Below are positions 2,185 through 60,083 of a stretch of DNA of 64,000 bases, piece after piece (within the stretch, counting starts at the first letter, position 1; each line of letters opens with the position of its first letter). The stretch comes from a virus, in the UHGV virus genome UHGV-1364187. One strand, 5' to 3'. The translations under genes and the position numbers were made by a program. The notes under the pieces are model-generated. The model did not search any database, had not been told where the DNA came from, and was given only the letters and a program-made list of their open reading frames with translations.

Positions 2185-2195
2185 AAAATAAATGC

Positions 2196-2228
2196 ACATG
2201 TGGGATTTGATTCTCACATGTACATTTT
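2196..2228 (+). terminator. Imperfect hairpin (cacatgtg..cacatgtac) followed by ATTTT, downstream of the Kelch gene
   Basis: Inverted repeat acatgtg/cacatgt read directly; the T-run is weak. Confidence 0.3.
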
Positions 2229-2257
2229 AATAATATCTTAAAAGGAGGTAAAAATAA

Positions 2258-13128: not shown

Positions 13129-14364
13129 CTAGTTTATATTTAATATTCCAAATGCATCATTTAACATATCAGTAATGTCAGTAGTTTTAACAACACTATT
13201 ATGAAACGCTTTTAAGCTTCTTTGTTTGGTTGTTGAAGCGATTTTGCTCATAGCCATACCTATATGGGCTATACCTATTCTTCTAAATAGACTACTACCA
13301 CATACCTCACATATATCTTCACCTTCACATAATGCAGCGAATCTAAGATTAACAGTTTTATCTATAAATTGATTCTTTGTATCTGAAGTAATTTCAATTA
13401 CTTTATCTCCTTGTTGGACAAAACAATACATATATTGTTTAATATTCTTCTTTGTTAATTTAACTCTAATTGTACGTTTCGTTTTACAATCACTTCCCTT
13501 AGGAGAAATAGAAATATGTTGAAATCCACTGAATAATAATTTCTCCCAATATCCACCAATTTGAGTTTTGATAGCTCTCGCTGTTGCTCCAGGTGCAATA
13601 GAGTTAGCAAATATATGATAATCCTCTTTAGATATACCATCCATATAACATGATGTAGCTATATCATATTTACCTGTTACGTTATTATATACAGCACCTT
13701 TCATCATACACATATTCTTTAAGTTATTTTCAATATTACCTCTGGCTTTACAATCAAAGATTTCCATCGCATCATCATCTTTTAATATTTCTTTTGTTTG
13801 TGCTATTAATTGATTAGAAATATCTTCTGCTACAACTTCATCACCATCTTCAAGAGCTTTCTTATTCTCTTTAATAAGTTTAGTCTTTAATGGCTTAAGT
13901 TTATCTGATAAAGATAATATAGCATCATCATAATGAGCTGCTAATACTGTAGTTAATCTCATTAGTATTTGTGACTTTAATAAGAAATGTTTTAATGCAT
14001 CTAATGGTACTTTATCTTCCAATCTAGCATATGTAATATCAGATACAATATCATTAAATACATCATCATCTACAGAATAATTTATATACTTTTCTAATTC
14101 AAATAGTTCTTTCTCTATACATAGTCTATTAAATATCCATAACCCTACAGTAGTTGTAAATTCATTCTTATTTCTCTTTCCTTCAGGACCATAAGAATTT
14201 GGTGGAATTTTAATATAATTAAATGGTTCAAATCTTCTTTTATTGTTAAACTTTCCAAGTAATTCTATAATAAGACTTATAGTTAAATCTTTTTCTTCTA
14301 AAGATAATAGATAATCTATATCTTCTTGTTTTGTTATAAACACACCATCTTTTACTTTAGGCAT
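13129..14364 (-). CDS. RNAP beta' subunit, C-terminal fragment (bridge-helix/trigger-loop region)
   Basis: TTTVGLWIFNRL matches beta' TTVGRAILWMIVPK. AKARGNIENNLKNMCMMKGA...ATARAIKTQIGGYWEKLL matches SGARGS..QLAGMRGLMA...ADTALKTANSGYLTRRLV. EDICEVCGS matches DFGVCAHCYG. Start chosen at MPKVKDG (AAAGGAG RBS) rather than the upstream ATG that lies inside the RBS. Confidence 0.75.
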   Translation of the reverse strand: MPKVKDGVFITKQEDIDYLLSLEEKDLTISLIIELLGKFNNKRRFEPFNYIKIPPNSYGPEGKRNKNEFTTTVGLWIFNRLCIEKELFELEKYINYSVDDDVFNDIVSDITYARLEDKVPLDALKHFLLKSQILMRLTTVLAAHYDDAILSLSDKLKPLKTKLIKENKKALEDGDEVVAEDISNQLIAQTKEILKDDDAMEIFDCKARGNIENNLKNMCMMKGAVYNNVTGKYDIATSCYMDGISKEDYHIFANSIAPGATARAIKTQIGGYWEKLLFSGFQHISISPKGSDCKTKRTIRVKLTKKNIKQYMYCFVQQGDKVIEITSDTKNQFIDKTVNLRFAALCEGEDICEVCGSSLFRRIGIAHIGMAMSKIASTTKQRSLKAFHNSVVKTTDITDMLNDAFGILNIN

Positions 14365-14454
14365 ATTATAATCTCCTTTCATCTAATTTATATTAATTAG
14401 ATGTAAACAGACAAAAAATAAAAGAGCAGAAACTAATCTACTCTTTTATATGTA

Positions 14455-39000: not shown

Positions 39001-40410
39001 TAAATTAGTTGATGTGAGTTCTTTATCAGTATCAGGACCAAGAATATCATCTAGTTTAATATTGTTTATTTCTTTTTGTCTTAGTTCTTTATTAAGATTT
39101 TCTAAACGGTCTAATCGTTGTTTGCTTATTTTACCACTATTATCTTGCTCAGCTGCCATTTTCAATATTAATTCTTTAAACTCTGGATCGTTCTCTAATT
39201 CTTCCATAGTAGCTTCTATATCTGAAGATTTTTCTGCAGCATTTTCAATTCTATTTAATAATTCTTTTTCATCTATAGAACCATCTTCTCCAGTAAGAGA
39301 ATTGATCTTGATTTTAGCCTTACCAGTTTCTAGTTTAGATAGAATAGCCATTACAATAGATTTTGTTGATGAATTATTATTAGCCATGCTATCTTGTTCT
39401 TCTGGTGGAATTGGCAAATTGTTTTCAATGATATTAATAAACTTATTAAATTTGATATAAGTTTCATTGTTGATATCATCTACTACTAATTTGAATTGAG
39501 TATTACCATTAGTAAATACAAATTCTTCACCAGATAGAAGTTCTTTAATCTTATCTGGATTTCTTCTTAATAATCTTGAGAATAATGATATAGGATTGAT
39601 ATTTTTCATATCTAATGTAGAATTCACACCTTCTGGAAGATTCCTATACCAACCATCAACAGGTATATATGACACTTTATTATATGAATCAAATCTTTCA
39701 TCTTTAATAAATCTATGAAGTAGTTCTAAGTATAGATATATACCTTTCATATTACTCATATAATTATTTTTAAAGAAATTTTCATTATAATAAAAGAAGT
39801 CTACATACATATTACGTCTTCTATATTTGTCCATATAAAGATATGCGTATTTGATAGATTTACATTCTTTCTTAATCTTATCATATACCAATACTACATC
39901 TTTTGGTGTTTTAAATCTTTCTCTATATAGTAATTGTTTTAAGATTTTATTGTATTTTGAAGATGATAGAATATTACTATTATCTTCTGCTTCTAGTAAA
40001 GAATTTAGTTTATCATTGTTAATGATTGTAATGCTAGATTCATCCATAATATAATCAATTCCAAATTCATTCATAGCTTCTAGTAAACCTTCTTTAGTTT
40101 GAGTATATAGATATCTATGTTTCTCTACATCTAATACCGTTTCGTTGATTATACTATCTTCTTCTAATATAATATCATCACTGTTTGATAAGAATGATTC
40201 TTGAGATATAATAAACGAAATATCTTTCTCAATATAATATGAGTCATATTGTTTATTACAATCTTTTGTATTGATAATCTTTATAGATTCATCAATATTT
40301 GGTGTTATTAAAAACATAATACTATCTTTGAGTTTATTTTTCGTATTGAACGGAAAATAAACAGGTTTATTGTATAATTTCATATTCTTTAAATCTTTAT
40401 ATAAAATCAT
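36073..40410 (-). CDS. Multisubunit RNA polymerase beta-like subunit (1445 aa, highly divergent)
   Basis: C-terminal KLAVGDKIVDYSAVKGVCRTVL matches beta GDKMAGRHGNKGVVSKI. HTILCVASTLARMTGAPI matches VLNPLGVPSRMNIGQI. The mid-region KRSYDPSMINILACATNFAGNSG matches [23 protein letters not shown]. GGAGG RBS. Confidence 0.8.
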   Translation of the reverse strand: MILYKDLKNMKLYNKPVYFPFNTKNKLKDSIMFLITPNIDESIKIINTKDCNKQYDSYYIEKDISFIISQESFLSNSDDIILEEDSIINETVLDVEKHRYLYTQTKEGLLEAMNEFGIDYIMDESSITIINNDKLNSLLEAEDNSNILSSSKYNKILKQLLYRERFKTPKDVVLVYDKIKKECKSIKYAYLYMDKYRRRNMYVDFFYYNENFFKNNYMSNMKGIYLYLELLHRFIKDERFDSYNKVSYIPVDGWYRNLPEGVNSTLDMKNINPISLFSRLLRRNPDKIKELLSGEEFVFTNGNTQFKLVVDDINNETYIKFNKFINIIENNLPIPPEEQDSMANNNSSTKSIVMAILSKLETGKAKIKINSLTGEDGSIDEKELLNRIENAAEKSSDIEATMEELENDPEFKELILKMAAEQDNSGKISKQRLDRLENLNKELRQKEINNIKLDDILGPDTDKELTSTNLSTRIDTVNEEEWSNLKYMNIENDYDVNKDIINCITELLTKSSYPVAVRDIKIEDSSTSEDYKDTYTVFCEDSFGKRFQFKFDVPKFKDNKFLIIKGNDKTINGQLLLLPISKTDPDTVQIVSNYNKIFIKRYGQKSDSVTDRLIKTINKTDKIKSTIGDCTLANNIYDVPYTYEYLASQYNKLETKDVIVYLNQKEIRTKYNIEKVPQGKIPIAYHKTSKEVIYSSFPDVPNKILDLLIGDDNELRELYNNTTKGKKYIYSRASILNTQIPLAIIICYQIGLTEMLKKANIKYTIKEKLDQSDKKADNADFIRFSDGYIVFECTNSSNLLLNGIKDVTTEIYSIGDIDSKSMWIEILDNYGPRAKLSDGIENFYDCMIDYITLQSLIHYGLPTEFTDILLYANDLLASTQYSNHTNMDAYRYRSNEIVAAYAYKELAYAYNDYKNKIKKGFKNATISMKQSAVIDEVLMANTAGDYSYTTPIGELEAINALSTKGHSGMNADRAYKADKRSYDPSMINILACATNFAGNSGIVRQATINMNVDTIRGYIKTTKNRDDMNITSSFSIQEALTPYGVTRNDAMRSAMDFIQTSKHQLPTKISFPSLITNGADQALPYMVTNNFAFKAKKNGTVETITDDYMIVTYSDGTHDFIDLRNNIRKNSDGGFYITLQLSTELKVGDKFKANDIIAYDKFSFDHAYGANDNLTYSMGLLTKVAIMSTEEGFEDSTIVSEYLSDALTSYIDVKKDVSMDKNAILLDIVKKGDYVQEGDTLLVFQDAYDEEDVNALMKSLSGDVELVSDLGRFTIKAKANGIISDIKVYRTCEIDELSDSLKKFVTEIEKPIKKIKSAQKKYGIDYIYGLESTEALPVVGKLKNIESGILIEIYLEYEDKLAVGDKIVDYSAVKGVCRTVLEKGKEPTSSYRPDEKIHTILCVASTLARMTGAPIIVGAINKAMIELDRHAKDLAGIKWKYLDQM

Positions 40411-43309: not shown

Positions 43310-43441
43310 TGCAATAAACATCTAAAATACATATAGAAATATACGTATACTCATTATATTTGATGAGTATACGTATATTTAATGTCTAATAAACACTATA
43401 ACATCATAGTAATTCTAGATATTTTAAGGAGGAATTTATTT

Positions 43442-44305
43442 ATGGAAGAATTTAAAAGTGTAATTAAAAGAAATGGTAAAATTGTAGATTACGATAGAAA
43501 TAAGATTAAAACTGTTGTTAGAAATAGTGGTCTTACAGATGAAGATAAATTAGAAGAATTTACATTGGAAGTTGAAAAACGACTACTAATAGAAAATGAA
43601 TCAGTTGATCATCAAGGTATATTTGATGTTGAACTAATTCAAGATATTATCATCCATCTGTTAGGACTATTAGGATATAAAAACGAACAAAATGAGTATA
43701 AGAGATATAAGAAAGAACGAGAAAAGATTAGACAGTCTAAATCTGATTTATTAAAAGTGGTTCATTCATTAGGTGTTGAAACTGATAGAGACAATGGGAA
43801 TGTTGGTAATAACTTCAGTGCCAAGTTATTACGTATTGCTAGCGAAACAAATAAATGTACGAATCTAGCATTAAATATTCCTAAGCATTTAGCGAAACCT
43901 CATGAAAATCATGATTACCATACTCATGATCTAGATAGTTATAATCTTACTACAAATTGTTTACATAATGACACTGGTGCTATATTAAAGAGAGGATTTA
44001 ATACTGGATATGGGTGGATTAAACCACCTAAAAGAATCGAATCAGCTGCCAACCTTACATGTATTATTATTCAATCACTTCAGAATGATTTTTATGGTGG
44101 GCAATCTTGTGTTGATATTGATAATGACCTTGGTGAATATGTAGAACCAACAAGACAAGAAATTATTGAAAGATTAGAACCTACAAGAAAATATGTACCA
44201 GAAGATGTATTCAATGATACAGTTGAAAGAATGTTAGATGAACAAATTCATCAAGCAGCACAGAATATTTGTTATAATCTTAATACTATGCATAGTAGAG
44301 CAGGT
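43442..44305 (+). CDS. nrdD: Anaerobic ribonucleoside-triphosphate reductase NrdD, exon 1 (ATP-cone and N-terminal region)
   Basis: AAGGAGG RBS. MEEFKSVIKRNGKIVDYDRNKIKTVV is an ATP-cone. HDLDSYNLTTNC...NLNTMHSRAG is colinear with class III RNR. The 3' exon boundary is approximate. Confidence 0.75.
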
Positions 44306-45463
44306 CAAGATGACTTAGCCGTGTTAGATAGAAATATCTAATATGATTATCGGGGAAATTCGGTAGAGGTCTAAGTAAGATTATCAATTAAAAAGAAATG
44401 ATGATATTTATGAATTATAATAAAACTGAAATTGAAAGATTATATTTTGAAGAAAATATGACATATGATCAAATATCTGAAATTGTAGGATGTTGTAAAT
44501 CTACTATAGGAAATATTATTAGATCAAATCCAAACTATAAAAAGAAATCACAAACACTATATAGTAATCCATTATTAGATGAAAATTATTTTGAAATAAT
44601 AGATACAGAAGCAAAAGCTTATATATTGGGACTTATGATAACAGACGGGAATGTTTGTTATTATGGTGATGGATATCGTATTAGATTACAATTAAAATAT
44701 GAAGATTCTTATATTTTAGAATTCTTTAAAAATCAGATTCACTGTTCCAATAAACTTATTGTTGATAAGCGAGATGGTTCTATTGCATTTAGTATAAAAT
44801 CAGAAAAGATGTTTTATGATTTATCTAAATATGGAGTAGTTCCTAATAAAACTTTAAATAATTATGTTCCACCAAATATACATCCAATGCTAATGCCTCA
44901 TTTAATAAGAGGAATATTTGATGGTGATGGTTGGATATCAAAATCGTTTGATAAAAATGGAAAGAAACATATAGCTATTGGTATTTGTGGAAATGAAAAT
45001 TTTCTTCAACAATTCAGGATATATTAGTAATAAATGCTCGAGTAAATATGAATATTATAAATTCTTATAGCTCAATTAATGAAGCTCCATTATACCAAAC
45101 AATGTGGTGTTCTATTGGAGATATTATTAGATTATATAGTTATTTATACATAGGTGCTAATATATATCTATTTAGAAAATATCATACTATAATTGATATA
45201 ATTTTATATGAAAATACCGAGAGGGCTTTAATCGAAAGTCTTTGTAACGCATAGGAGTTGAACGTTATGATAGTAAAAATACTCCCAAGAGTCTCCGACA
45301 CAATATACTATAGGTATATTTGAGGTGGAAATTGCTCACCACCAAACCTAACGTTAAACGAGGGTGAATATATATGCTAGGCTGGATTGGAAATGACCAA
45401 TCGATGAAAATGAGGGAAACCTCCAGAGGTCTAGATAAAAAGCTAGACGTTAATAACAGTCCG
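44306..45463 (+). mobile_element. Group I intron 1 in nrdD (~1158 nt) carrying a LAGLIDADG homing endonuclease ORF
   Basis: Separates ..MHSRAG from SQVPFSSLN, which are contiguous in NrdD homologs. The 3' portion has CCGAGAGGGCTTTAATCGAAAGTCT and GAGTCTCCGACAC core elements similar to intron 2, plus a terminal hairpin gtctag..ctagac and a final G. Confidence 0.65.
44398..45027 (+). CDS. LAGLIDADG homing endonuclease (two motifs) with an N-terminal helix-turn-helix, encoded inside nrdD intron 1
   Basis: AYILGLMITDGNV is motif 1 and HLIRGIFDGDGWIS is motif 2. Confidence 0.8.
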   Translation: MMIFMNYNKTEIERLYFEENMTYDQISEIVGCCKSTIGNIIRSNPNYKKKSQTLYSNPLLDENYFEIIDTEAKAYILGLMITDGNVCYYGDGYRIRLQLKYEDSYILEFFKNQIHCSNKLIVDKRDGSIAFSIKSEKMFYDLSKYGVVPNKTLNNYVPPNIHPMLMPHLIRGIFDGDGWISKSFDKNGKKHIAIGICGNENFLQQFRIY

Positions 45464-45766
45464 AGTCAAGTTCCATTTAGTAGTTTAAATATTGGACTTC
45501 CTAAAAATAAAAATGGTGCTAGAGTATGTATGGCATTATTAGAAGAATACGATAAAGGTATGGGAAAAGGAGAACAAATGATTTTTCCTAATATTATCTT
45601 TAGATGTAAAAAAGGTATTAACAAAAATCCTAATGATCCATATTATTATTTATATGATAAAGCTTGTGATGTAGCAAGTAGACATATGAATCCAACATTT
45701 ATGAATATTGATAGTAAAATTAATATGGAGTTATGGAAAAAAGGTATTACACCTGCAATCATGGGT
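45464..45766 (+). CDS. nrdD: NrdD, exon 2
   Basis: SQVPFSSLNIGLP...FPNIIF...PAIMG continues NrdD; the exon ends with ...ATG GGT immediately before the in-frame TAA. Confidence 0.65.
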
Positions 45767-46075
45767 TAACAGAAAATGTTACACGGTTTCTACAGCTCAT
45801 GTAAAACCTATCTAAACAGGGAAAGCTCATAAGAGTCAATCCTGTGCTAAATTCTAATATTATATAGAATATATAATTATTTATACATTGTATATAGTAC
45901 TAGATAAATGCCGAGAGACTATCGAAAGACTATTTTATATAGAATCAAGTAGAGTAGGATACAAGTGTATTCGAAAAGATAGGCTTAGATATTTATATTA
46001 TCTATGAAGATATAGTCCGACACCTATAGTGATATAGGAAAGATTATGGAAACGATAATCTTATAACAAGAAATG
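45767..46075 (+). mobile_element. Group I intron 2 in nrdD (ORF-less, ~309 nt)
   Basis: Contains an exact S element AAGATATAGTCC (gaAGATATAGTCCgacac), GCCGAGAGACTATCGAAAGACT (shared with intron 1 and the beta' intron) and an IGS-like ACCTAT complementary to the exon end ATGGGT. The intron ends in G, and the junction restores the conserved MG-CR motif (PAIMG|CRTYVG). Confidence 0.7.
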
Positions 46076-47035
46076 TGTAGAACATATGTAGGTACAAATA
46101 TCAATGGTCAAGAAGGACCATCTAGAAGAGGAAATAATGCACCTGTTACTATTAATTTACCTAGATTAGGTATTAAAGCTAAAGGTGATTTAAATAAATT
46201 CTGGAGTTTATTAGATGATATGCTTAATTTATGTAAAGAATCTTTATTACATAGACATAGTATATTATGTAAACTTAGAGTAAAAGATTTACCATTTGCT
46301 GCAGGAGAAGGTATTATGATGGGTTCAGAAAATCTTGGACCTGATGATACTATCGAACCAATTCTTAAGAACGGAACATATGGAATTGGATTTGTAGGTT
46401 TAGCTGAAACATTAGTAGCATTAATTGGTAAACATCATGGTGAATCTAAAGAAGCTGACGAATTAGGATATAAAATTGTAAGTCACATTAGAGAATATTG
46501 TGATAAAACTAAAGAAGAGACACATCTTAATTTCTCATGTTACTATTCACCTGCTGAAAGTACAGCTGGAACATTTGCAAATGCAGATAGAGAAAAATAT
46601 GGTATTATTAAAGGAGTTACTGACCATGATTTCTATACAAATTCTGTTCATATTCCAGTGTATTATAATATCTCTATTAAAGATAAGATTGATATTGAAT
46701 CTAAATATCATTATTTAGGAAATGGTGGTCATATCTTTTATGTGGAAGTTGATGGATATCCATCTAAAGAACAAATTAAGAAAATTGTAGATTATGCGTT
46801 TGATCAAAGTGATATTAGTTATATGGGAATTAATTTCCATATTAGATATTGTAAAAAATGTGGTAAACGTGTAACGAATAATGTTATGGTATGTGATTGT
46901 GGAAGTACAGCTTTCCAAGGTATTAGTCGTATTACTGGATATTTAGCCCTAGATGGAAGATGGGGTCAAGGAAAAGTTGCAGAAAGAAAAATGAGAGTAT
47001 CGCATACTACAGGTAAAAATGTATATACAGAATAA
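46076..47035 (+). CDS. nrdD: NrdD, exon 3 (C-terminal glycyl-radical domain and zinc ribbon)
   Basis: CRTYVG..INLPR; CKKCGK..CDCGS zinc ribbon; glycyl-radical motif SRITGYLAL. Confidence 0.75.
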   Translation, partial: CRTYVGTNINGQEGPSRRGNNAPVTINLPRLGIKAKGDLNKFWSLLDDMLNLCKESLLHRHSILCKLRVKDLPFAAGEGIMMGSENLGPDDTIEPILKNGTYGIGFVGLAETLVALIGKHHGESKEADELGYKIVSHIREYCDKTKEETHLNFSCYYSPAESTAGTFANADREKYGIIKGVTDHDFYTNSVHIPVYYNISIKDKIDIESKYHYLGNGGHIFYVEVDGYPSKEQIKKIVDYAFDQSDISYMGINFHIRYCKKCGKRVTNNVMVCDCGSTAFQGISRITGYLALDGRWGQGKVAERKMRVSHTTGKNVYTE

Positions 47036-49455: not shown

Positions 49456-49458
49456 CAA

Positions 49459-49498
49459 ATAAGTAGGTACTTAAATGTACCTACTTATTTTATTTTTT
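49459..49498 (+). terminator. Rho-independent terminator (aagtaggtac-ttaaat-gtacctactt + TTTATTTTTT)
   Basis: Read directly. Confidence 0.7.
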
Positions 49499-49506
49499 GA
49501 GAGGAT

Positions 49507-49938
49507 GTGTTTATTATGATTAATGGAGTTGTTGAAATTAGAGATTATAGGATAGAACAATCAGAATTATTATATAAGACTCTAAAAGTCTATAATATAA
49601 TAGACAATGTATCTAATCGATCTATATTCTCAGTACATATTAATCATAATAGAGTTATTATGCATACTTTATTTTCTAAAGAGTCTATAACACTAGATAT
49701 TAATATAGACAATATTAACGATATAAGAAAACATATTAAACATATAAAACTAGAATATAAAGATGACAAATTCTTTGTATATATTAACGATATAAAAGTA
49801 AGTGTACTGAATGTAAGTCTGTATAGAAATATGTATAAAATGAATAGTAAAAGAGTAGGGTATTACCCTACTCTTTTACTATTTGTCCAAAACTCCACAT
49901 TTACTAGGAATAACACTATAGTAATCGAAAGGAGGTAA
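49507..49938 (+). CDS. Hypothetical protein (143 aa)
   Basis: GAGAGGATG RBS. Confidence 0.5.
   Translation: MFIMINGVVEIRDYRIEQSELLYKTLKVYNIIDNVSNRSIFSVHINHNRVIMHTLFSKESITLDINIDNINDIRKHIKHIKLEYKDDKFFVYINDIKVSVLNVSLYRNMYKMNSKRVGYYPTLLLFVQNSTFTRNNTIVIERR
49912..49923 (+). promoter_or_regulatory. Late-promoter-like motif AACActatagTA, 20 nt upstream of the giant gene ATG
   Basis: Read directly. Confidence 0.45.
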
Positions 49939-49943
49939 TCTAT

Positions 49944-52900
49944 ATGGCACAAAGAACAAGTTTAACAAAATATGCAAAGAATTTAGTAAAATCAACTAAA
50001 TATGCTACTGTTGATGTTGTAAAGGAATTAATGCCAAGTGCAACAGATTTTATGGAAACAAATAATGAATTATTTAAAGATATTACGTCTAATATACGTA
50101 ATAGACGTGTTATTTTTAAAAGAGTAAACGATAAAGTTACTCAATCAAAAATCTATGAAACTGTAGATGAAGCTAGAAAAAATATCATAGAAGATATAAA
50201 ATCTGGTAATTTATATAACAAAGATCCAATCAGAGAAAGACGTATTAATAAAAAATCTGGTATGGAGAGTATGTTAGGTGGATTTGATGATTTTAGTGAT
50301 TTTGAGTTTGAAATGGATGATTCATTCGAATTTGAAGATAGTGATAATGCCGAATTAGCTGATGCTTTTGATGATTCTAATAGAACAACATCAGAAATGA
50401 TCGCTAATACAATTGCAAAAACATCATCTAATCAGATCCAATCACAAAGAATATCAAGCCAGATGACAATGATGCAATTACAAGAAGGATTTACATTAGT
50501 AAATTCAAATCTTGGTGGAATAGGTAATGCTATTTCTGAATTAGGGAATACTATGTCATCTATTCAACAAACTAATGCTGAAAATGCAAAAACTTATTAC
50601 GAAAAATCTACTGACTTGCAAGCTAATATGGTATCATATCTTAAAGAGTTAGTAGATATGAAAAAATCTGAAATGGGATTAGATGCTAAGAAAGATACAT
50701 CTCGTGGACCTAAATCATATAATGACATAACTACATATGAAGGTATGCCTGATCTTAGAGCATATGGTAATATATTAGCTAGTAAATTAAATGATAATTT
50801 ATCAATGATTACAGGTCTTAATGAAATGGGTATCGAAGGTGGAAACATGTCAATGCAATTTGCTATGTCACCACTTGCATTTCTTCCTAAGATGGTTGTA
50901 AAGAAGGTTATGGGAGTAGCTGTTCAAAATTCAGCAAAAGCTTTAGATAATACATTATCAAATATATTTGGTACATTCATATCTGCTATGAATGATATGG
51001 CTGATAATTCTGGATATATGTCAATAAAAGGAATGATAGGACGATTCTTTGGTTTAAATGACACTGTAAAAGATGAACGTAGTATAAGAACAGACTATGA
51101 TAAAGGAAATAAATCATGGAATGGTAAAGCCGAAAAAGCATTAACTGAAGTAATTCCTACATTAATTTCTAAAATTTTAGCTGTAGTATCTGGAGCAAAT
51201 GAGATGACATATAACTACGATAATGGTAAATTTACTACAGTAAAACAATTAAGACAAGATGTAAAAAATAGAACTACTAATGAAATGAATAGTGCATTTT
51301 ATGATATAAGAAATAAAATGGACGAAATGATGAGATCTATTAATTTTGATTTTTCTGATGAAGACACTAAAGCATCATTTGAAAAAGATTATAATAGATT
51401 CTTTGAATATTTCTTTAAATCTAATAATAGATTTAATCCAAATAAGAAAAACTATGAAGATTATGATGGTCTTGGTATTGATAGAGGTAATTTTGAAATT
51501 ATATCTACATTGTTTGAAAGACTAGATCCATCATTAAAAATGTCTATGGATAGTAAAAAAATAAGAGCTAGAGGTGCTATTAATGATTATATTGATAAAT
51601 TAGGACAGAATAGTCCAGTATATACTATCCTTAATAATGATTCAAAATTAACAGATGTCGATAAATCTGTAGATGGAAAATCTGGAGGGTTATTAACAGC
51701 ATCTAAAGATTCATTAGGACATGACATATTCTGGTTTTTGGATAATATTCTTAAATCTATTAGAGATTTAAATCCAGATTCTGAATATAATGTAAATGGA
51801 AAGAAACGTAAAAAGAAAAGAACTAAAAATATAACTTCAACTCCTATTGTTCCATCTTCAGATAAAACATCTTCTGCTGGAAATAGGAAGAGATATGTTA
51901 GTCCAGATGCTCTTACTGCAGAATCTATATTATATAATAGAGCAGAGGGTACTACTATATCTGGTATTATTAATAATAGATTGGATATTGCTGACGAACA
52001 GAGAAAATTGGAGGAAGAAGAAAAAACATCTATTATTGATGATTTATTAGACTCACCATCTTTACCAGCGAAAGCTAAAGCTTTCATGAAAAGAATGAAA
52101 TCTACTAAAGAAGGTGCTAGAAATGGTATATCTGGACTTTTAGATACTGTAAATCTTAAGATATATCAAGCTATGTATGGTAATAAAAAATATAAAGGTA
52201 AGGATGTAAATGGTATTATAGGAGTAATGATGGAAAATATCGAAGAATCATTCACCAAGTTCAATACATTCTTAGATGAAAAGATCTTATCTCCATTGAA
52301 AGAAAAGTTAGATGAACAAGGTGGAATTAAAGGTATTCTTAAAAACACATTAGGAATAGATGTTGATTCTATTAAAGAAAGATTCTTTGGTAAAGATACT
52401 CTTTTTGGTAGAACTGTTCAATCTATTAAAGATAATTTTAAATCTGCTTATGAGTATTCTAAAGGAGCTGTAAAAAACACATACAATGAAATCTATGATA
52501 AATTAGGTGGAAATAGATACAATAGTAGATTCAATCGTGTAATGAACACTATTAAATATGGTAAGAAAAATACACAAGGTATGTTTATTGTAGATTCAGA
52601 TGGACAACTTAATATACTTAATCAAGTAAAAAAAGTTAAACCTTCAAATGTTACAGAAGATGGAAGATTAAACACTCAAGAAGAAGCTTCATCTGTTATG
52701 GAAGGACAAATGAGTTTCTTACCAAAAGACGAACAACAAGCTATAAAAGAAGCTGCAAATAATATGAATGTTCCAGTAGAAAATATTGCAGATGCAATCA
52801 ATAAAGGTAATATCGAAAAATATGCTAAAGGTGGAAATATTCATAAAACTAAAATTGTTATGGTTCATGATGGAGAAGAAATCATTACCAAAGAAGAAAA

Positions 52901-55900
52901 ACGTAAGAGAGATAGAGAAAGAGCTTATGATCTAAGAGTTAAAAATAACATAAATAAACTAAATACTGAAATGAGCGAAGATTTTGTTGGGCCTTTACCT
53001 TTAAAAGATCAAAAAATAAAAGATTTCTTATCTGGAATTAATGAAGAAAACCTTGGAACTATTAAAGATTCTTTAGGAAAAGATTTTAAAGCTACTACTG
53101 TAGAAACTTTAAGACAGGAAATTATAGAAGCTGTTGGTCATAAAAAAGGTGATCCTACATTAATGGAAACCATGAAAGACACTGCATCTGATGGAATAAA
53201 TAAAGTAATGTCAGTGTTATTTGGTACAGATGAAAATGGTGATGAAAAAGCTGATGATCTTAAAGAACGTGGAAAAGCTGCAATGAAAGATATTATGGGT
53301 AAATTTAAAGAATATCTCCCATCTGGAATATCTGGTGCATTAATTGGTACTCTAGCTGGTGGTGTTGTTGGTATGCCTATGATTGGTGCAGCATTGGGTT
53401 CATCTATTAATCTTATTAGAAAATCAGATAAACTTCAATCATATTTATTTGGAGATTTAGATGAAGAAGGTAAGAGAATAGGTAATGGTAAACTTCCAAC
53501 CAAATTTGTAGATGCTATGAATAAATATGGTCCAGATATGAAAAAGTACGGTATTACAGGTGCAATTACATCTATTTTACCTTTTGTTCCTGGTGGTCCT
53601 GTTGCTGGATTATTATTAGGAGCAGGTGTTGGGTTTGCTAAAAATAACGCTAAAGTACAAGACTTCTTATTTGGAGATATGGGCATATTAAAAGGTCTTA
53701 AAGGTAGTGGTGAGAAATTAAAGAAAGCTTTACCTAAAATGGGTCTAGGTGCGGCTGCTTTAGCATTAACTGGTCCATTCGGTTTACTTGGTAATGCTAT
53801 GCTTGGTGCTGGTGCAGGATTTGTTACTCAAACAAATAAATTCCAAGAATTTATGTTTGGTAAAGATGGTAAAGATAAAGATGGTAACCCTATTAAAGTT
53901 GGTGGATTTTTACCAATGATTAGGGATAGAGTAATCAACCCTATTAAAGAATTTGGTTCTACATTAGGTGATAAAGTTAAAACTTTTGTAGATGAAGAAA
54001 TAAGAAAACCATTTCATAAAGCAATGAGTCCATTTATAGAAGAATTTAAATACCAAGGTAAGAGATTGTTTGATGGTATAAAAGATTCTATCAGTGGAGC
54101 TATTAATAATGTATTTGAAAAGTCAGTTGGTAAACCATTAAATGAACTTATCGAAGATAAGATTGTAAAACCAATTACAGGATTATTTAAGAAAGTATTT
54201 AACTTTTTAGGAGGTATTGTTGGTGGTATTCTTAAATTCCCTACTAAAATCATGTCAGGAGCTGCAGACTCTTTAAGAATTAAACATTTAAAACAAGGTC
54301 GTGCTGATTATATGTCTGATGAAGAATTAGGTGAATTAAAAGAAAAGAAACCATTTGATTATTTAATGGCTACATCAGGACAACGTTTCATAAATGCACT
54401 TAATGAACGTGGTTTATTTGGTTCTATGAAAGATTTATTTACTAGAGATAAAGATGAAGTTGTTACTGACGAGGAATCTGTTAAAGAAAAGAAACCTACA
54501 TTCAGAGAAAAAGTATCAGGAATAGTAGCTAAAGGTTTAGATTCTTATAATGCTAAAAGATTAGCTATTACAGAAAGAGTATCATCTGGGTATGCTAATA
54601 CTAAAGAAGAATTAAGAAATGCTAAACAAAATCTTAAAACAAAAGCTTATCAAGCTGCAATGAATGCAACAGATAAATTATCAGCTAGTATTGAAGCTGG
54701 TAATAGGTATTCTAAAGTTTCTTCTTATAGGGAATCAGAAACAGAAAGCGAGGGAGACTCGACTGGTTCTTCAGAGAAGCGTGTTGATCTTAGAACTAGA
54801 ACACCTAAAATTAAATCTGTAAAAACACAAAATGTAAGTTTAGTAAATCCAGAAGTTGATGCTTTGAAACAACAAGTAAAACAATTAACCACCGAGCTTG
54901 CAGTAATGCAAAAAGAAAAAGAAGAAAATAAAGATACATCTTCAGACAAATCATCAGAATATATCAAAGATATAAGAGATGAGGTTAGAGGGCAATTAGA
55001 TGGAGTTGGATACAATATCCATACGATTGCTAATATACTAGTAGAACAATTCGGTATGCCTAAGATTAAAGCTACAGGTGCTAAAGTATCTCGTGGAAAT
55101 CTTAAACGAAAATTATGGTTTGAGAGAATGTTTGGATTTATTCTTAATCCTGTTAGAAAAGTTAAAGATAGTATTCATAATCTATTCTGGGGTAAAGATG
55201 GTAATGGTGGTTTATTAGGCACTCCAATGAGATGGGTTAAGAAAGGATTTGAAAAAATAGGTAATATTGGAACATTAATTGGAAAAGGATTAGCTGGTAT
55301 ACTAAATATTGGTTCAGGTATTGTTCATGGACTTGGTATATTAGGTGGTATCTTTAAAGAAAGTTTAGCTGCAATAGCTCCAGCTATTGGAAGTTTATTA
55401 AAAGGTGCAGTTAAAGTATTAACGTTACCTATCGATTTATTATCAGGTGCAATATCAGGTCTTGGTAATATGCTTGGTGGATTAGCTAATGGTATTGGTA
55501 TTCTTGCTGGAAAAACTATTGAACTTGTTTCTTTAGTTCCATCATTAATTACTAATATTGGTAAACTGACTATTGAAGTTGGTAAATTTGCATTCAAATT
55601 AGTTAAGAAAGGTGCAGAACTTATAACAGCTCCAATAAGATGGATGGCTAATGGTATTATTGATATATTTAGAGGAAAAAATAAGAAAAATAAAAAGAAA
55701 GAAATCAAGCATATTATAGAAGGTGGTTTCTTAGATAAAATCAAAGAACCTATCGATATTAGTGGTGAACAAGATAGACATGATAAATTATTATCTTTCT
55801 TTGATGATAAATTTAATAAATTATTTGATTTATTAAGTGGAACTGATAATAAAAAGAAATCTATTACAAATAATATTACTAATAAAGAAGAAATAGAAGA

Positions 55901-58900
55901 AGATAAACCAAAATTATCTACTGAAGAATTACAAAAGATGTCATTTAGTGATTATATTAGATCTGGTCAAAGTATGTCTCTTGATGATTTAGAAAGATAT
56001 GCAGACGCAAGAAAGAATCTAATGACTACTGTTAAAAAACCAGAACAACCTGCTAATAATGGAGATGTATTGAAAAAATCTTTATATGATATTATCAATG
56101 ATAATAGAGCAGGAATGAAACCATCATATGATAAACCACTAAATGTTCAAACTGAAGAACAAATTAATATGCCTACTGAATTTGGTGTTATTAGATATGA
56201 TAAAGATACTTCTGGTGAATTAAGACCAGTACAAGACTCAGTGTATACTCAGTATAAAGAAAATCAAGATAATCTTGCTGAACACAATTCAAAAATGTTC
56301 AATCTTCTTAATACTGGAGATGCAGAGGATGACGGTAAATCTACTAAGAAAGAATCTTGGATTTCTAAGATTGCTAAAAATATTGGTAGTGTATTAATGG
56401 GTGGTACTCTTCTTAAAGTTGTTGGTGCAGGTTTAATGGCTGGTGCTGTATATGATCTAGCTAAGAATGGAGAAAATTCATTTGTTGGTAAATTTGTTTC
56501 TTTCTTTAGTGATAAAGTTTTACCAAAAATAGTAGATTTTACAATAAATACAGCAATTCCAGTATTAACAGATGCATTACTTTCTCTGTCAGAAATGATA
56601 TTAGATAGAGTTACAAATCCACAAAAATATTCAAATCCAGATCATGAATTATCAAAAGCTAATGCGAAAGCTAAACTCAGTGATGGATCTTATATTACTG
56701 ATGATGGAGTTTATGATAAAAATGGTAATTGGATAATGCAATCATATACACCTACCACAACTGGTTCATTAATAGAAAAAGGTTGGAATAAAATAGCTGG
56801 AAATAAAATAGAATCATGGGCAAAAGATACATTCGGTGAGAATTCAATAGGAGCTAGATTATTTTCAACAAATGTATTATCAACAACTATAGATGATAAA
56901 GAGATAGAAAATGTTTCTCATAAAAATTCAGAAACAACAAAAACTAATAAAAACAAAGAAGAAACAATGTCAGATAGTGAGTTCTTTTCTAAAGCTATAT
57001 TTGGCAAAGGTAAAAAGAAATATGGTCTAGGTGAATCATTCTTCTCACAAAATGATCCTAGATGGAGTAATTTACCATTTAATACTGAAAATGATACAGA
57101 AGCTCAAACTATTGCAGATTCTGGTTGTGGTCCAACAGCCGCAGCTATGGTAGCTGATCAATACGGAAGAGCTAATCCAGTAGAAGCTTCAGCTTTCGCT
57201 TTAAATAATGGATATAAAGAACAAAATGGTGGTACTGATCCTAGATTCTTTAAAGATTATTTCAATAAAAAAGGTATTGATAGTGATATTGATACAGATA
57301 TTGATACTAATTCTGATAAGAAATTATCTATTATTAATAATCTTAGAAAGAATAAACCTGTTGTATTAATGGGTAAATCTAAAGGTGGTAATACACCATA
57401 TGGTAAAGAATATCCACATTATGTTGTAGCTACTGGAATGAGAGGCGACAAGATTCAAATTAATGATCCCAACTCTAATCATGGTGGAGAATTATACGAT
57501 GCTAATGATACACTTAGATCTTCAACTATAAGCGTAAAAACTGGCAGAGGTAAGAAATCTAAATATGGTAGAGTAAATATGCAAGCTATGCTTGACACAA
57601 CAATGAATGTTGCTGGAGCTGTATCAGGTGCAGTTATGCCTACATCTAGTACATCATCAGTAGCTAGAACGGTAACAAATAACTTCAGTAGTGCTAGTGG
57701 ATTTGCAACATCATCAGATGGATCTTTAACAGAAGGTAAAAGTGCACTTAATTTCGTAACAGATTTAGGTACCACATTTACTAAAGCTATCGGTGAATTC
57801 TTTGGTGTTGATATGTTTTCTAGTAATACTGCTAGTAGAGATGTTGGTTCCTATGGTTCTATGGGAGGTTCTGTACAAGTAGGTACGGCAGGTCAATGTT
57901 TTGATGCTAACGTTGCAGCTCAAGTTATCAATGATTTCTTTAAAAATAGTCCTAAACTTAGTGGAAAAGGTGCTACTATTGTATCTATTGCTCAACAAGC
58001 TTGTCATAAAAGTGCTAATGGACAAAATCCTGGTATTGATCCATTCATTCTTGCAGCTATTATGATGCAAGAAACAGGAGGAAATTCTAATGCATTAAAT
58101 AACAAGAATAACCCTGGTGGTGTTAAGGGAAGTAATGGATTACAAGTATTTAGTACAATTGAAGATGGTATTATGGCTGTTGCTAAGATTATCCATAGAG
58201 AATGGGTAGTTAATGGTAATAGCAGTATTGCTGGATTAGGTAGTATTTATTGCCCAGTAGATGCTGCAGATGATCCTAATGGATTAAATAAAAACTGGGT
58301 TGGAGGAGTAACCAAATTCTATAACCAGTTAGTACAAGCAGCTATAGCTGCAGGAGGTTTATTAGGTACTTCTGATAATATGGCTATTAGTAATATGGGA
58401 ACAGCTAATAATGTTGCAATACAAATTGTACGAATAGCTAAATCATATATAGGCAAAGTTAAATATGTATTTGGTGCAGAAACTCCAGATAAAGGTGTAT
58501 CTGACTGTTCTGGATTTACTCAAGCTGTATATAGAAAAGTAGGTCTTGCTATTGGTAGAAATACTGAAGCACAAATTACTAATAAAAATATTGTAAAAGT
58601 TAGTGATTCATACAACTTTAAAGCTCAACCTGGTGATTTAATATTCTTCAAAAACACTTACAATTCTGGATATATTTATGGTGTATCTCATGTTGGTATT
58701 TGTACTGGAGAAGGAACAAAATTTATTGAATGTAATAGTAGTAAGGGTGTTTGTGTAAGTGATTATACTAGTAACTATTGTAAGAAATATTTCTTAATGA
58801 TTAAACGTCATACTGCATGTGTCGACAAGAATGCTATGTATAAGACATCTCAAGCACAACAAACTGCTAAAAAAGCAAATACTACAACTGCAACAACTAC

Positions 58901-60011
58901 TACTAAATCAAATGATCCACTTAAAAATGCTAATAACGCTATTAATTCAAAAAATGCAACTTACAATGCATATAATACCCTTTCAGGAAAAGGTAAATCA
59001 AAAGATATTAGATATAACTCTGATATTAAGAAACCATCTAAGAGAATTAATAGAACTGTGTCTAGTAATAATGATTATTTAGAAGAAATAAATTATGGTA
59101 AAGGAATTGGAAAAGTAAACTTAGAAAAACTTAAGAAATTACCAAAAGTTCAAAAATTAATTTCAGAAGAGTTATCTAAAGCTGTTAAGAACAAGTCAAA
59201 AACTCCAGTATCTACAGCTGCAGCAAAAGTATATGCTAAGCTTAAAGCTTCTAAATTTACTGATGTAACAGATTCTGAAGGAAATTACATTGATTTCGTT
59301 GAACTTGAAAGAAACAATAATGCTACTCCTATTGTTGATGGTAAATTAAACTTAAGAGAATTTGATGCTGATGGGAAATTAATCGATTGGGATGCTGTAA
59401 ATGAGAAGAATGGTGTTGTTACAAAACAGGATGATACTCCAGTTATTGGAGAAGCTAATCCTATCTCTACAGTATTAAATACAATCTATAATAAACTTAC
59501 AGGGAATAATCAAGATACTGCTAAGAAAGAAGATCTTGATTCTGAAGGTAATAAAATAGATTGGAATGAAGTTGAGAAGAATAACAACATCGAGGTTAAG
59601 ATTCCTACTAATGCTTCTCAATTAACAGATCAACAATTGAAGAAGAAAGAAGCTGAGAATAATACTACTCAAACTAATACGACATCTACAAACAATAATA
59701 CAAAAGAACAACAGCAAATTGAGGCTCAACAAAAAGCTGTAGAAGCTAAACAAACTCAAGTTGATAATCAATTGACTGCATTAACTAATATAGCTAAATC
59801 TGTAGAGAGTATTTATAACTTAATATTATTATTAGTAAATAATGGTATAGATATTAAGAACTTAGCTGAAATTCTTAAAGCTATTGGTGTATCATCATGT
59901 GATGGAGGAAGCAATAATGCGTTCTTTATTCCACAAAATAATACACAATCATCAGATGCCCATAATGCCGATATGGAACTTCTAAGTAAACTTAAAGAAA
60001 TAGCTAAATAA
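49944..60011 (+). CDS. Giant virion-associated, tape-measure-like protein (3355 aa) with three C-terminal peptidoglycan-hydrolase-type domains
   Basis: AAAGGAGG RBS. Three Gly-rich hydrophobic repeats each ending ..Q(D/E)F(L/M)FG; a glycine-zipper segment (GLAGILNIGSGIVHGLGILGG). C39-like peptidase signature ADSGCGPTAAAMV (~aa 2393). Lytic transglycosylase motif ILAAIMMQETGG (~aa 2700). NlpC/P60 motif VKYVFGAE..DCSGFTQAVY..HVGICTG (~aa 2850). C-terminal coiled coil. Confidence 0.75.
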   Translation: MAQRTSLTKYAKNLVKSTKYATVDVVKELMPSATDFMETNNELFKDITSNIRNRRVIFKRVNDKVTQSKIYETVDEARKNIIEDIKSGNLYNKDPIRERRINKKSGMESMLGGFDDFSDFEFEMDDSFEFEDSDNAELADAFDDSNRTTSEMIANTIAKTSSNQIQSQRISSQMTMMQLQEGFTLVNSNLGGIGNAISELGNTMSSIQQTNAENAKTYYEKSTDLQANMVSYLKELVDMKKSEMGLDAKKDTSRGPKSYNDITTYEGMPDLRAYGNILASKLNDNLSMITGLNEMGIEGGNMSMQFAMSPLAFLPKMVVKKVMGVAVQNSAKALDNTLSNIFGTFISAMNDMADNSGYMSIKGMIGRFFGLNDTVKDERSIRTDYDKGNKSWNGKAEKALTEVIPTLISKILAVVSGANEMTYNYDNGKFTTVKQLRQDVKNRTTNEMNSAFYDIRNKMDEMMRSINFDFSDEDTKASFEKDYNRFFEYFFKSNNRFNPNKKNYEDYDGLGIDRGNFEIISTLFERLDPSLKMSMDSKKIRARGAINDYIDKLGQNSPVYTILNNDSKLTDVDKSVDGKSGGLLTASKDSLGHDIFWFLDNILKSIRDLNPDSEYNVNGKKRKKKRTKNITSTPIVPSSDKTSSAGNRKRYVSPDALTAESILYNRAEGTTISGIINNRLDIADEQRKLEEEEKTSIIDDLLDSPSLPAKAKAFMKRMKSTKEGARNGISGLLDTVNLKIYQAMYGNKKYKGKDVNGIIGVMMENIEESFTKFNTFLDEKILSPLKEKLDEQGGIKGILKNTLGIDVDSIKERFFGKDTLFGRTVQSIKDNFKSAYEYSKGAVKNTYNEIYDKLGGNRYNSRFNRVMNTIKYGKKNTQGMFIVDSDGQLNILNQVKKVKPSNVTEDGRLNTQEEASSVMEGQMSFLPKDEQQAIKEAANNMNVPVENIADAINKGNIEKYAKGGNIHKTKIVMVHDGEEIITKEEKRKRDRERAYDLRVKNNINKLNTEMSEDFVGPLPLKDQKIKDFLSGINEENLGTIKDSLGKDFKATTVETLRQEIIEAVGHKKGDPTLMETMKDTASDGINKVMSVLFGTDENGDEKADDLKERGKAAMKDIMGKFKEYLPSGISGALIGTLAGGVVGMPMIGAALGSSINLIRKSDKLQSYLFGDLDEEGKRIGNGKLPTKFVDAMNKYGPDMKKYGITGAITSILPFVPGGPVAGLLLGAGVGFAKNNAKVQDFLFGDMGILKGLKGSGEKLKKALPKMGLGAAALALTGPFGLLGNAMLGAGAGFVTQTNKFQEFMFGKDGKDKDGNPIKVGGFLPMIRDRVINPIKEFGSTLGDKVKTFVDEEIRKPFHKAMSPFIEEFKYQGKRLFDGIKDSISGAINNVFEKSVGKPLNELIEDKIVKPITGLFKKVFNFLGGIVGGILKFPTKIMSGAADSLRIKHLKQGRADYMSDEELGELKEKKPFDYLMATSGQRFINALNERGLFGSMKDLFTRDKDEVVTDEESVKEKKPTFREKVSGIVAKGLDSYNAKRLAITERVSSGYANTKEELRNAKQNLKTKAYQAAMNATDKLSASIEAGNRYSKVSSYRESETESEGDSTGSSEKRVDLRTRTPKIKSVKTQNVSLVNPEVDALKQQVKQLTTELAVMQKEKEENKDTSSDKSSEYIKDIRDEVRGQLDGVGYNIHTIANILVEQFGMPKIKATGAKVSRGNLKRKLWFERMFGFILNPVRKVKDSIHNLFWGKDGNGGLLGTPMRWVKKGFEKIGNIGTLIGKGLAGILNIGSGIVHGLGILGGIFKESLAAIAPAIGSLLKGAVKVLTLPIDLLSGAISGLGNMLGGLANGIGILAGKTIELVSLVPSLITNIGKLTIEVGKFAFKLVKKGAELITAPIRWMANGIIDIFRGKNKKNKKKEIKHIIEGGFLDKIKEPIDISGEQDRHDKLLSFFDDKFNKLFDLLSGTDNKKKSITNNITNKEEIEEDKPKLSTEELQKMSFSDYIRSGQSMSLDDLERYADARKNLMTTVKKPEQPANNGDVLKKSLYDIINDNRAGMKPSYDKPLNVQTEEQINMPTEFGVIRYDKDTSGELRPVQDSVYTQYKENQDNLAEHNSKMFNLLNTGDAEDDGKSTKKESWISKIAKNIGSVLMGGTLLKVVGAGLMAGAVYDLAKNGENSFVGKFVSFFSDKVLPKIVDFTINTAIPVLTDALLSLSEMILDRVTNPQKYSNPDHELSKANAKAKLSDGSYITDDGVYDKNGNWIMQSYTPTTTGSLIEKGWNKIAGNKIESWAKDTFGENSIGARLFSTNVLSTTIDDKEIENVSHKNSETTKTNKNKEETMSDSEFFSKAIFGKGKKKYGLGESFFSQNDPRWSNLPFNTENDTEAQTIADSGCGPTAAAMVADQYGRANPVEASAFALNNGYKEQNGGTDPRFFKDYFNKKGIDSDIDTDIDTNSDKKLSIINNLRKNKPVVLMGKSKGGNTPYGKEYPHYVVATGMRGDKIQINDPNSNHGGELYDANDTLRSSTISVKTGRGKKSKYGRVNMQAMLDTTMNVAGAVSGAVMPTSSTSSVARTVTNNFSSASGFATSSDGSLTEGKSALNFVTDLGTTFTKAIGEFFGVDMFSSNTASRDVGSYGSMGGSVQVGTAGQCFDANVAAQVINDFFKNSPKLSGKGATIVSIAQQACHKSANGQNPGIDPFILAAIMMQETGGNSNALNNKNNPGGVKGSNGLQVFSTIEDGIMAVAKIIHREWVVNGNSSIAGLGSIYCPVDAADDPNGLNKNWVGGVTKFYNQLVQAAIAAGGLLGTSDNMAISNMGTANNVAIQIVRIAKSYIGKVKYVFGAETPDKGVSDCSGFTQAVYRKVGLAIGRNTEAQITNKNIVKVSDSYNFKAQPGDLIFFKNTYNSGYIYGVSHVGICTGEGTKFIECNSSKGVCVSDYTSNYCKKYFLMIKRHTACVDKNAMYKTSQAQQTAKKANTTTATTTTKSNDPLKNANNAINSKNATYNAYNTLSGKGKSKDIRYNSDIKKPSKRINRTVSSNNDYLEEINYGKGIGKVNLEKLKKLPKVQKLISEELSKAVKNKSKTPVSTAAAKVYAKLKASKFTDVTDSEGNYIDFVELERNNNATPIVDGKLNLREFDADGKLIDWDAVNEKNGVVTKQDDTPVIGEANPISTVLNTIYNKLTGNNQDTAKKEDLDSEGNKIDWNEVEKNNNIEVKIPTNASQLTDQQLKKKEAENNTTQTNTTSTNNNTKEQQQIEAQQKAVEAKQTQVDNQLTALTNIAKSVESIYNLILLLVNNGIDIKNLAEILKAIGVSSCDGGSNNAFFIPQNNTQSSDAHNADMELLSKLKEIAK

Positions 60012-60017
60012 AAAAAT

Positions 60018-60056
60018 AATAATGTTGTGGAATAACCCAATTCCACAACATTATTA
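60018..60056 (+). terminator. Hairpin terminator (aatgttgtggaat-aaccca-attccacaacatt)
   Basis: 13-bp perfect stem immediately after the giant gene. Confidence 0.6.
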
Positions 60057-60058
60057 TA
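60047..60058 (+). promoter_or_regulatory. Late-promoter-like motif AACAttattaTA overlapping the terminator stem
   Basis: Pattern match only. Confidence 0.3.
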
Positions 60059-60083
60059 ATTAATATGAAAGTAGGTGATATAA

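Follow-up and report, generated by a model that had tools for sequence, protein, structure and literature searches.

The stretch of DNA analyzed here, 64,000 nucleotides (nt) of the UHGV virus genome UHGV-1364187 (hereafter the window), carries a 10-kb gene whose product of 3355 amino acids (aa) has a conserved N-terminal domain, a long central part with glycine-rich hydrophobic repeats, and three enzyme domains following one another near the C-terminus (Table 1). With a probability of roughly 0.6, we take it to be a very large tail-associated protein, resembling a tape measure, from a jumbo myophage of the AR9/PBS1 type; its three enzymes would form a wall-breaching cassette. The original prediction, made from the DNA letters alone, had proposed a single open reading frame (ORF) of this size preceded by a ribosome-binding site, and this holds: the frame is uninterrupted, the identical protein is predicted on the 256,505-bp ENA/JGI metagenome contig ERZ27229639 k119_250412, and an AGGAGG motif stands 8 nt ahead of the start codon.

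Table 1. Features of the giant gene, its product and the surrounding window (positions are those of the window)
Feature	Position	Strand	Residues (aa)	Remarks
Giant ORF	49944..60011	+	1-3355	Single uninterrupted frame; ATG start; position includes the stop codon
Shine-Dalgarno sequence	49930..49935	+		AGGAGG, 8 nt ahead of the ATG of the giant gene
Late-promoter-like motif	49912..49923	+		AACActatagTA; exact fit to AR9 consensus AACA-N6-TA/G; predicted transcription start A49923
Perfect hairpin	49843..49883			19-bp stem; about 60 nt 5' of the giant-gene start codon, within the preceding 143-aa ORF
Terminator-like hairpin	60016..60057			18-bp stem; directly 3' of the giant-gene stop codon
N-terminal conserved domain	49944..51503	+	1-520	Family hallmark; homologous to the N-termini of AR9 g204, PBS1 gp95 and BpSp gp263
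Three tandem units of ~55 aa	53295..53867	+	1118-1172, 1192-1246, 1254-1308	Lys-rich lead, Gly-zipper hydrophobic segment, then (K/N)xQxF(L/M)FG
Second Gly-rich hydrophobic block	55266..55568	+	~1775-1875	By composition
Peptidase_C39_2-like domain	57030..57548	+	2363-2535	Papain fold; catalytic Cys2395, His2492, Asp2508
GH73/PF01832 glucosaminidase-type lysozyme-like domain	57897..58367	+	2652-2808	Catalytic Glu2710 in QETGG; also NNPGG, YCPxxAxxDP
NlpC/P60 (C40) domain	58458..58805	+	2839-2954	Cys2855, His2916, third triad position Glu2929
C-terminal tail	59751..60008	+	~3270-3355	Conserved helical motif, terminal ..LKEIAK
Multisubunit RNA polymerase beta/beta'-like ORFs	8882-10147, 13129-14382, 36073-40410	-		PHROG matches; one is 1445 aa long

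The window is, on its gene content, part of an uncultured AR9/PBS1-like (phiKZ/AR9-type) jumbo phage, an assignment made because it holds split RNA polymerase beta/beta' genes, as is typical of phiKZ/AR9 phages, because the giant protein is homologous at its N-terminus to AR9 g204, and because gene order is shared. Residues 7-502 align with AR9 g204 at a BLASTP E-value of 5e-19 and 23% identity, the rest of the sequence not being alignable, and in the phage database the matches of the N-terminal part are limited to the giant proteins of AR9, PBS1, Goe21, Internexus and BpSp, all of them Takahashivirus. The N-terminus is also matched by phrog_26249 (E 9e-18), which bears the label 'unknown function'. 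In the window, in AR9 (g204-g208) and in BpSp the giant gene is followed by a gene for a virion structural protein (phrog_20401) and then by RusA; its neighbors in the window are NrdD/NrdG, two small ORFs, the virion protein and RusA. AR9 g204 (annotated as 'tail tape measure protein'), PBS1 gp95 ('lysis domain protein') and gp263 of BpSp, in full vB_BpuM-BpSp ('hypothetical protein'), resemble the giant protein in some 500 N-terminal residues, in genomic position, in their Gly-rich hydrophobic blocks and in the possession of a C-terminal lytic domain. These Bacillus phage proteins are, however, 1797-1925 aa long as against 3355 aa here, and the one lytic domain recognizable in AR9 g204 is VgrG3-like (PF21277) and C-terminal, Pfam matching no C39-like, GH73 or NlpC/P60 domain in g204. 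By its N-terminus, the protein is thus assigned to the AR9 g204 family, and by its predicted enzymes to PF13529, GH73 (through transitive homology and fold) and PF00877; the relationship to g204 also bears out the earlier description of it as a giant structural-type, tape-measure-like phage protein.

The first of the enzyme domains scores 39.4 bits with PF13529 (papain-like clan CA), for which the cut-off is 24, the match running over aa 2376-2510 and profile positions 11-143 of 143, and its catalytic Cys2395, His2492 and Asp2508 are kept in 95%, 100% and 100%, respectively, of 42 family copies. An AlphaFold model built on a 23-sequence alignment reached a predicted local distance difference test (pLDDT) score of 96, and its top Foldseek matches, at E-values of 1e-6 to 1e-5, were 3erv, an uncharacterized putative C39-like peptidase of B. 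anthracis, the leader-peptide proteases PCAT1 and ComA, and the pseudomurein endoisopeptidase PeiR; a CdiA toxin domain was also matched. The classical bacteriocin-processing C39 peptidase, PF03412, was considered and rejected, with 16.7 bits against a cut-off of 22 and no ABC-transporter context. A literature search on YvpB, a PF13529 protein of Bacillus, returned nothing on its function.

The middle domain had been predicted to be a lytic transglycosylase, a proposal that was right in expecting a glycan-cleaving, lysozyme-like fold and wrong at the level of the family. Taken alone, the protein matches the glucosaminidase family PF01832 at 17.4 bits, below the cut-off of 30.2, whereas a profile of five orthologous copies retrieves 2024 representative proteins (947 with E<=1e-10), and the ten nearest that were tested all lie above the PF01832 cut-off exactly at the matched region; membership therefore runs through transitive homology. 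When a second profile, of the middle domain and 22 homologs (A3, 23 sequences), was searched against the PDB, the matches were 8yxk at 1e-30, pneumococcal LytB (4q2w, 7pj3) at 3e-10, the C. perfringens and S. aureus GH73 enzymes 5wqw and Atl (6fxo) at 5e-8 and 5e-7, and AtlE at 2e-3. The AlphaFold model (pLDDT 90) superposes on 8yxk, recognized through the fold search as the glucosaminidase domain of C. difficile Ecd09610, with a template modeling (TM) score of 0.72-0.75 and a root-mean-square deviation of 2.0 Å, while the remaining GH73 structures gave weak Foldseek matches (E 0.14-1). Glu2710, in the E-(S/T)-G motif of QETGG, is invariant in 23/23 aligned homologs. With the SLT-type lytic transglycosylase family PF01464 the score was 15.7 bits, below the cut-off of 21.3, and the match spanned just 32 residues around the catalytic Glu; the lytic transglycosylase EmtA was matched by A3 at 2e-4, to be compared with 1e-30 and 3e-10 for GH73 enzymes. 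On transitive homology and modeled fold, the middle domain is placed in the GH73/PF01832 glucosaminidase family, with cleavage between N-acetylglucosamine (GlcNAc) and N-acetylmuramic acid (MurNAc) at the GlcNAc-beta-1,4-MurNAc bond as its predicted activity.

The third domain, with 61.2 bits, lies above the PF00877 cut-off of 23, and the match (aa 2839-2954) takes in positions 2-104 of the 105 in the profile. Its PDB matches 4hpe, 7cfl (from C. difficile) and 4fdy have E-values of 1e-12 to 2e-10, and Cys2855 (DCSGF) and His2916 (SHVGI) line up with the equivalent residues of these structures. At the third position of the triad, this protein (Glu2929) and its three closest orthologs have Glu, and distant homologs have His. 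The sole match of the whole protein in PHROGs was a 'tail protein' family, over the NlpC/P60 part, and NCBIfam gave sub-threshold NlpC/P60 matches and nothing else. The domain is predicted to be a stem-peptide endopeptidase. The three signature motifs that had first drawn attention to this region do occur in the order proposed (SGCGP at aa 2393, QETGG at aa 2709, DCSGF at aa 2854), and under profile searches the C39-like and NlpC/P60 calls pass their Pfam cut-offs with catalytic residues intact, the lytic transglycosylase call giving way to GH73. We hold the identities of the enzyme domains, as now revised, with high confidence.

The remainder of the chain is less readily classified, as residues 1-2300 and approximately 2953-3355 have no Pfam or PDB match, and residues 520-2360 and approximately 2953-3355 gave neither a profile match in the Pfam and NCBIfam searches nor a PDB match. 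The three F(L/M)FG repeats and the glycine-zipper segment of the original prediction are present: (K/N)xQxF(L/M)FG closes each of the ~55-aa units at aa 1163, 1237 and 1299, GxxxGxxxG is found within the units at aa 1131/1135 and 1218/1222, and the three repeat motifs are kept in the four closest homologs (P0002-P0005). These units are putative membrane-inserting segments. By composition, two Gly-rich hydrophobic blocks can be delimited, at aa 1101-1300 and 1701-1900, with 15-21% Gly. At the other end of the protein, an alignment of the final 110 residues of 65 homologs together with AR9 and BpSp gave a family motif, ..I(A/V)xN(T/S)..IxxLL.. and then (M/L)xxIA(K/R/S)x, 1-3 residues before the stop, which is retained although the enzyme modules that precede it are shuffled; its conservation suggests that the extreme C-terminus may be a docking element. 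A further motif, xG[KR]GK, lies in linkers between the modules, at aa 2354, 2534, 3015 and 3052 (window positions of about 57003, 57543, 58986 and 59097). Among family members, 30/74 copies of the C39-like domain have G[KR]G after their end, as against a background of 2.8%, and the density of this motif is 3.4-fold higher in the C-terminal 40% of the sequences. The motif could serve as a linker or as a site of cleavage.

With the whole protein as query, 65 giant homologs of 2751-5786 aa were retrieved, many of them on contigs of ~230-274 kb. All but a handful carry the N-terminal domain at their own N-terminus, and 61/65 have the C39-like domain by the family hidden Markov model (HMM), nine of them in two or three copies. 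When the family HMM was combined with precomputed Pfam assignments, 50 of the 65 proved to contain three or four distinct catalytic families, drawn from glycosidases (Phage_lysozyme2, Glucosaminidase, SLT, VgrG3_C) and peptidases or amidases (CHAP, M23, NlpC/P60, VanY, Amidase_2). In coordinate scans of ten members (five close orthologs and five diverse ones) the C39-like domain was the first catalytic domain in every case, and the order of the catalytic domains after it varied between members. A few members are present in NCBI as unnamed phage proteins from metagenome-assembled genomes, e.g., "CHAP domain protein", and a survey of gut-phageome lysins lists C39_2-C39_2-Phage_lysozyme2-NLPC_P60 proteins among its 'endolysins' (PMC13284279). 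Since at least three catalytic families occur in most homologs and the architecture had already entered that survey, the triple array is the rule of the family and not an exception, contrary to the earlier suggestion that it would be unusual even for jumbo phages.

Among characterized enzymes, the closest parallel in domain arrangement is Ecd09610, a lysin from a prophage of C. difficile 630, which has the same tandem of glucosaminidase then endopeptidase, with glucosaminidase domains 28% identical, and whose two catalytic domains are individually lytic on C. difficile (PMC9405191). It is, however, far smaller, consisting of an uncharacterized N-terminal domain and the two catalytic domains, with no C39-like domain, hydrophobic repeats or tape-measure-like body reported. 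For the NlpC/P60 domain, some of the best solved relatives are the CwlT/Tn916 Orf14-type hydrolases (4hpe, 4fdy, 9ubf), in which a glycosidase is likewise followed by NlpC/P60, an arrangement for opening a local hole through which DNA is transferred. The N-terminal domain of CwlT is a muramidase of another lysozyme family, and these are conjugation proteins of ~300 aa, not phage structural ones. As for phage tails, SPbeta CwlP is a tail protein with lytic domains. Likewise, phiKZ gp181, T5 Pb2, phiIPLA35 TMP and TP901-1 Tal are very large virion or tail proteins with peptidoglycan hydrolase domains in the C-terminal region for wall breaching (PMC6024856). The phage database search gave no sequence similarity between the giant protein and any of these tail proteins. 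Tail proteins of the phiKZ gp181 type have one or two lytic domains, and we know of none reported with a C39-like domain. The AR9-related Staphylococcus jumbo phages DC4, MarsHill and Madawaska have a tape measure protein with M23 and, adjacent to it, a ~2000-aa 'tail lysozyme' with PF18013 and PF00877; these are giant alpha-helical proteins with transmembrane segments that carry M23, Phage_lysozyme2 and NlpC/P60 domains, but the functions are spread over two adjacent genes of ~2000 aa each, as against one of 3355 aa here, and BLAST found no similarity between them and the giant protein.

Taken with the synteny and N-terminal orthology with a gene annotated as tail tape measure protein, several traits of the giant protein are those of tape measures, namely its long and apparently largely non-globular body, its hydrophobic Gly-zipper segments and, across the 65 homologs, its conserved ends around a variable middle. 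We put the virion and tape-measure role at about the same 0.6. The protein would be made late and assembled in the tail, where its two conserved ends could dock to tail or baseplate partners, and contraction of the sheath would drive it out into the envelope of the host, presumably a Gram-positive bacterium and probably one of clostridial type. Glycan strands would then be cut by the GH73 domain and stem peptides by the NlpC/P60 domain, opening a local hole in the wall, a proposal that matches the homologous two-domain Ecd09610, in which each domain is lytic alone. The Gly-zipper repeats might enter the membrane and help to form the channel for the DNA, a role that has been suggested for other tape measure proteins, and the C39-like domain might either cut a third wall bond (a cross-bridge or an isopeptide, as PeiR does) or trim the giant protein itself.

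Several observations weigh against this interpretation. No canonical tape-measure profile of Pfam, NCBIfam or PHROGs matches anywhere in the protein, and no gene for a tail tube, sheath or chaperone adjoins it in the window. Structural genes are usually scattered in jumbo phages. At the rule-of-thumb value of 1.5 Å per residue, the ~2300 residues that precede the enzymes would exceed the typical length of a jumbo-phage tail, which suggests that the whole chain is not a simple ruler. A literature search found no experimental report of peptidoglycan cleavage by a PF13529 domain, and BpSp gp263 is missing from the 23 proteins of the BpSp virion proteome, a study of low coverage and hence uninformative on this point (PMC4870245).

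The C39-like domain could instead be a processing or maturation protease that cuts a precursor or partner at the Gly-Lys/Arg-Gly linkers, in which case GH73 and NlpC/P60 would be released or activated during assembly or ejection and the protein would hold two wall activities, not three. It is the constant enzyme of the family and, in the ten members scanned, always the leading one while the others are shuffled, several of its nearest solved relatives (PCAT1, ComA) are Gly-Gly leader-peptide proteases, and both the excess of G[KR]G after the domain and toward the C-terminus of family members and the four xG[KR]GK sites between the modules here would suit such a role. The motif differs, however, from the canonical Gly-Gly site of C39 peptidases and may be a mere flexible linker; the wall isopeptidase PeiR is structurally just as close to the domain; and in lysins of phages that infect Gram-positive bacteria PF13529 has been counted, purely from bioinformatics, as a catalytic domain (PMC8223927). 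We consider a processing role unlikely, though worth keeping in view. Its extension to a self-dismantling tape measure, in which cleavage by the C39-like domain at the G-K/R-G linkers would set free the enzyme modules, and perhaps the membrane-inserting body, during assembly or ejection, is more doubtful still; if true, it would be a mechanism not described for jumbo phages.

Other explanations concern the place of the protein in the virion, or outside it. It might be a tail-tip or baseplate lysin, or a fiber-like structural protein, with the length of the tail set by a separate, unrecognized gene, and this we judge to have only a minor share of the probability, similar to that of the processing protease. 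The lack of a canonical tape-measure profile and the excessive length for a simple ruler are what such a protein would lead one to expect, AR9 g204 and BpSp gp263 weakly match phrog_3201, 'tail fiber protein', and the related Staphylococcus jumbo phages have two adjacent ~2000-aa candidates, one called a tape measure and the other a tail lysin with PF18013 and PF00877; yet tape measures typically have hydrophobic Gly-zipper segments and a variable middle between conserved ends, the annotators of AR9 call g204 a tape measure, and the window, which covers 64 of the contig's 256 kb, contains no second giant helical ORF. An internal head protein, packaged in the capsid and ejected before the DNA like T7 gp16, is improbable: although jumbo phages of the AR9 group pack many proteins into the head, including the virion RNA polymerase, and although ejected internal proteins are known to bear lytic domains in some cases (PMC6024856), homology and synteny link the giant gene to one annotated as encoding a tail protein, and neither head-protease cleavage motifs nor neighboring head genes came to light. 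Least probable is the role of an endolysin that acts from inside the cell when infection ends. Automated lysin catalogues do class such multi-domain proteins in this way, with the same domain string among 'endolysins' (PMC13284279), and Ecd09610 has been called a putative endolysin (PMC9405191), but ~2300 of the 3355 residues are non-enzymatic and include hydrophobic repeats, the N-terminus is homologous to a structural-gene family, the Pfam scan of the protein found no cell-wall-binding domain, and AR9 encodes a separate amidase endolysin, g195.

Regarding expression of the gene for the proposed tail protein, the late-type promoter of the original prediction was partly upheld. The motif ahead of the gene fits exactly the late-promoter consensus of AR9, which was derived experimentally (PMC5312081), and matches to this consensus 10-60 nt 5' of ORF starts number 12 against 4.9 expected (P = 0.004). 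The DNA is AT-rich, with 27% GC, so the motif is frequent, with 146 matches in the window, and a late promoter for the giant gene fits the data weakly, one motif match being little evidence. Timing is not simply deducible from synteny either, because, within the AR9 region 156313-180660, the co-oriented cluster to which g204 belongs has an annotated early promoter at its head, upstream of g200. The perfect hairpin at 49843-49883 is probably a transcription terminator or an RNA-processing hairpin; hairpins of such length occur at two sites in the region against 0.1 expected in shuffled sequence. A further long perfect hairpin lies at 49457-49490, and the stems of the three hairpins range from 14 to 19 bp. 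As the hairpin at 49843-49883 falls inside the ORF at 49507-49938, either the 3' end of this 143-aa ORF is non-coding or the hairpin is tolerated in coding sequence; the ORF product showed no similarity to AR9 g203.

The neighboring genes offer some further observations. For the phrog_20401 virion-protein gene (60065/60083-61903), the ATG at 60083 is the likelier start, being the ENA gene call and preceded by a GGTGAT-type ribosome-binding site; its counterpart in AR9, g205, consists of three joined pieces interrupted by two small ORFs, and the copy in the window is unbroken. The nrdD gene is in at least three pieces, at 43382-44341 (ATP-cone and NRDD positions 1-156), 45374-45769 (NRDD positions 155-252) and 46073-47035 (C-terminal part), with a LAGLIDADG-like ORF at 44398-45027 between the first two. 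The split looks like the work of two intervening sequences (introns or similar), which are common in AR9-type phages. In a nucleotide search of the 44-64 kb part of the window against the phage database there was no close relative, and the sole match, unrelated to the giant gene, was a 97-nt stretch at 45361-45457 with 88-90% identity to DNA of AR9, PBS1, Internexus, BpSp and the Yersinia phage phiR1-37. In the records of those phages the stretch is unannotated DNA or lies under a gyrase/topoisomerase II gene, and in the window it stands just ahead of the NRDD-homologous portion of the second nrdD piece; judged by this conservation and position, it is probably the 3' end of a self-splicing intron common to these phages. 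An Rfam scan of the split nrdD region gave no match to an intron model at E<=0.01. Elsewhere in the window, the RNA polymerase beta/beta'-like ORFs are a hallmark of phiKZ/AR9-type jumbo phages, which have virion and non-virion RNA polymerases.

Compared with genome contigs, the modules of the GH73 and NlpC/P60 part are 31-41% identical to sequences mostly of Clostridia (Lachnospiraceae, Peptostreptococcaceae), with some from Cohnella, Bradyrhizobium and Nitrobacter, which may be taken as a hint of the host but not as a host assignment. The anaerobic ribonucleotide reductase, together with hydrolase modules like those of Clostridia and Bacillus phages, loosely points to an anaerobic Firmicute, and a Gram-positive host is plausible given the Bacillus phage relatives and the Clostridia-type hydrolases.

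How a phage gets through a thick Gram-positive wall is determined by its virion-associated lysins, which are also being mined for antibacterial use. The architecture found at this locus is what would be expected for its family, and its interest lies mainly at the family level, in the leading C39-like peptidase and in the conserved basic glycine motif that follows it. This large and almost unannotated family of jumbo-phage proteins keeps a fixed scaffold, made up of the N-terminal domain, the hydrophobic repeats and the C-terminal tail, and shuffles its wall-degrading modules behind a constant C39-like domain, whose role is the question that the family raises. It thus constitutes a natural library of lysin combinations, presumably tracking the wall chemistry of the hosts.

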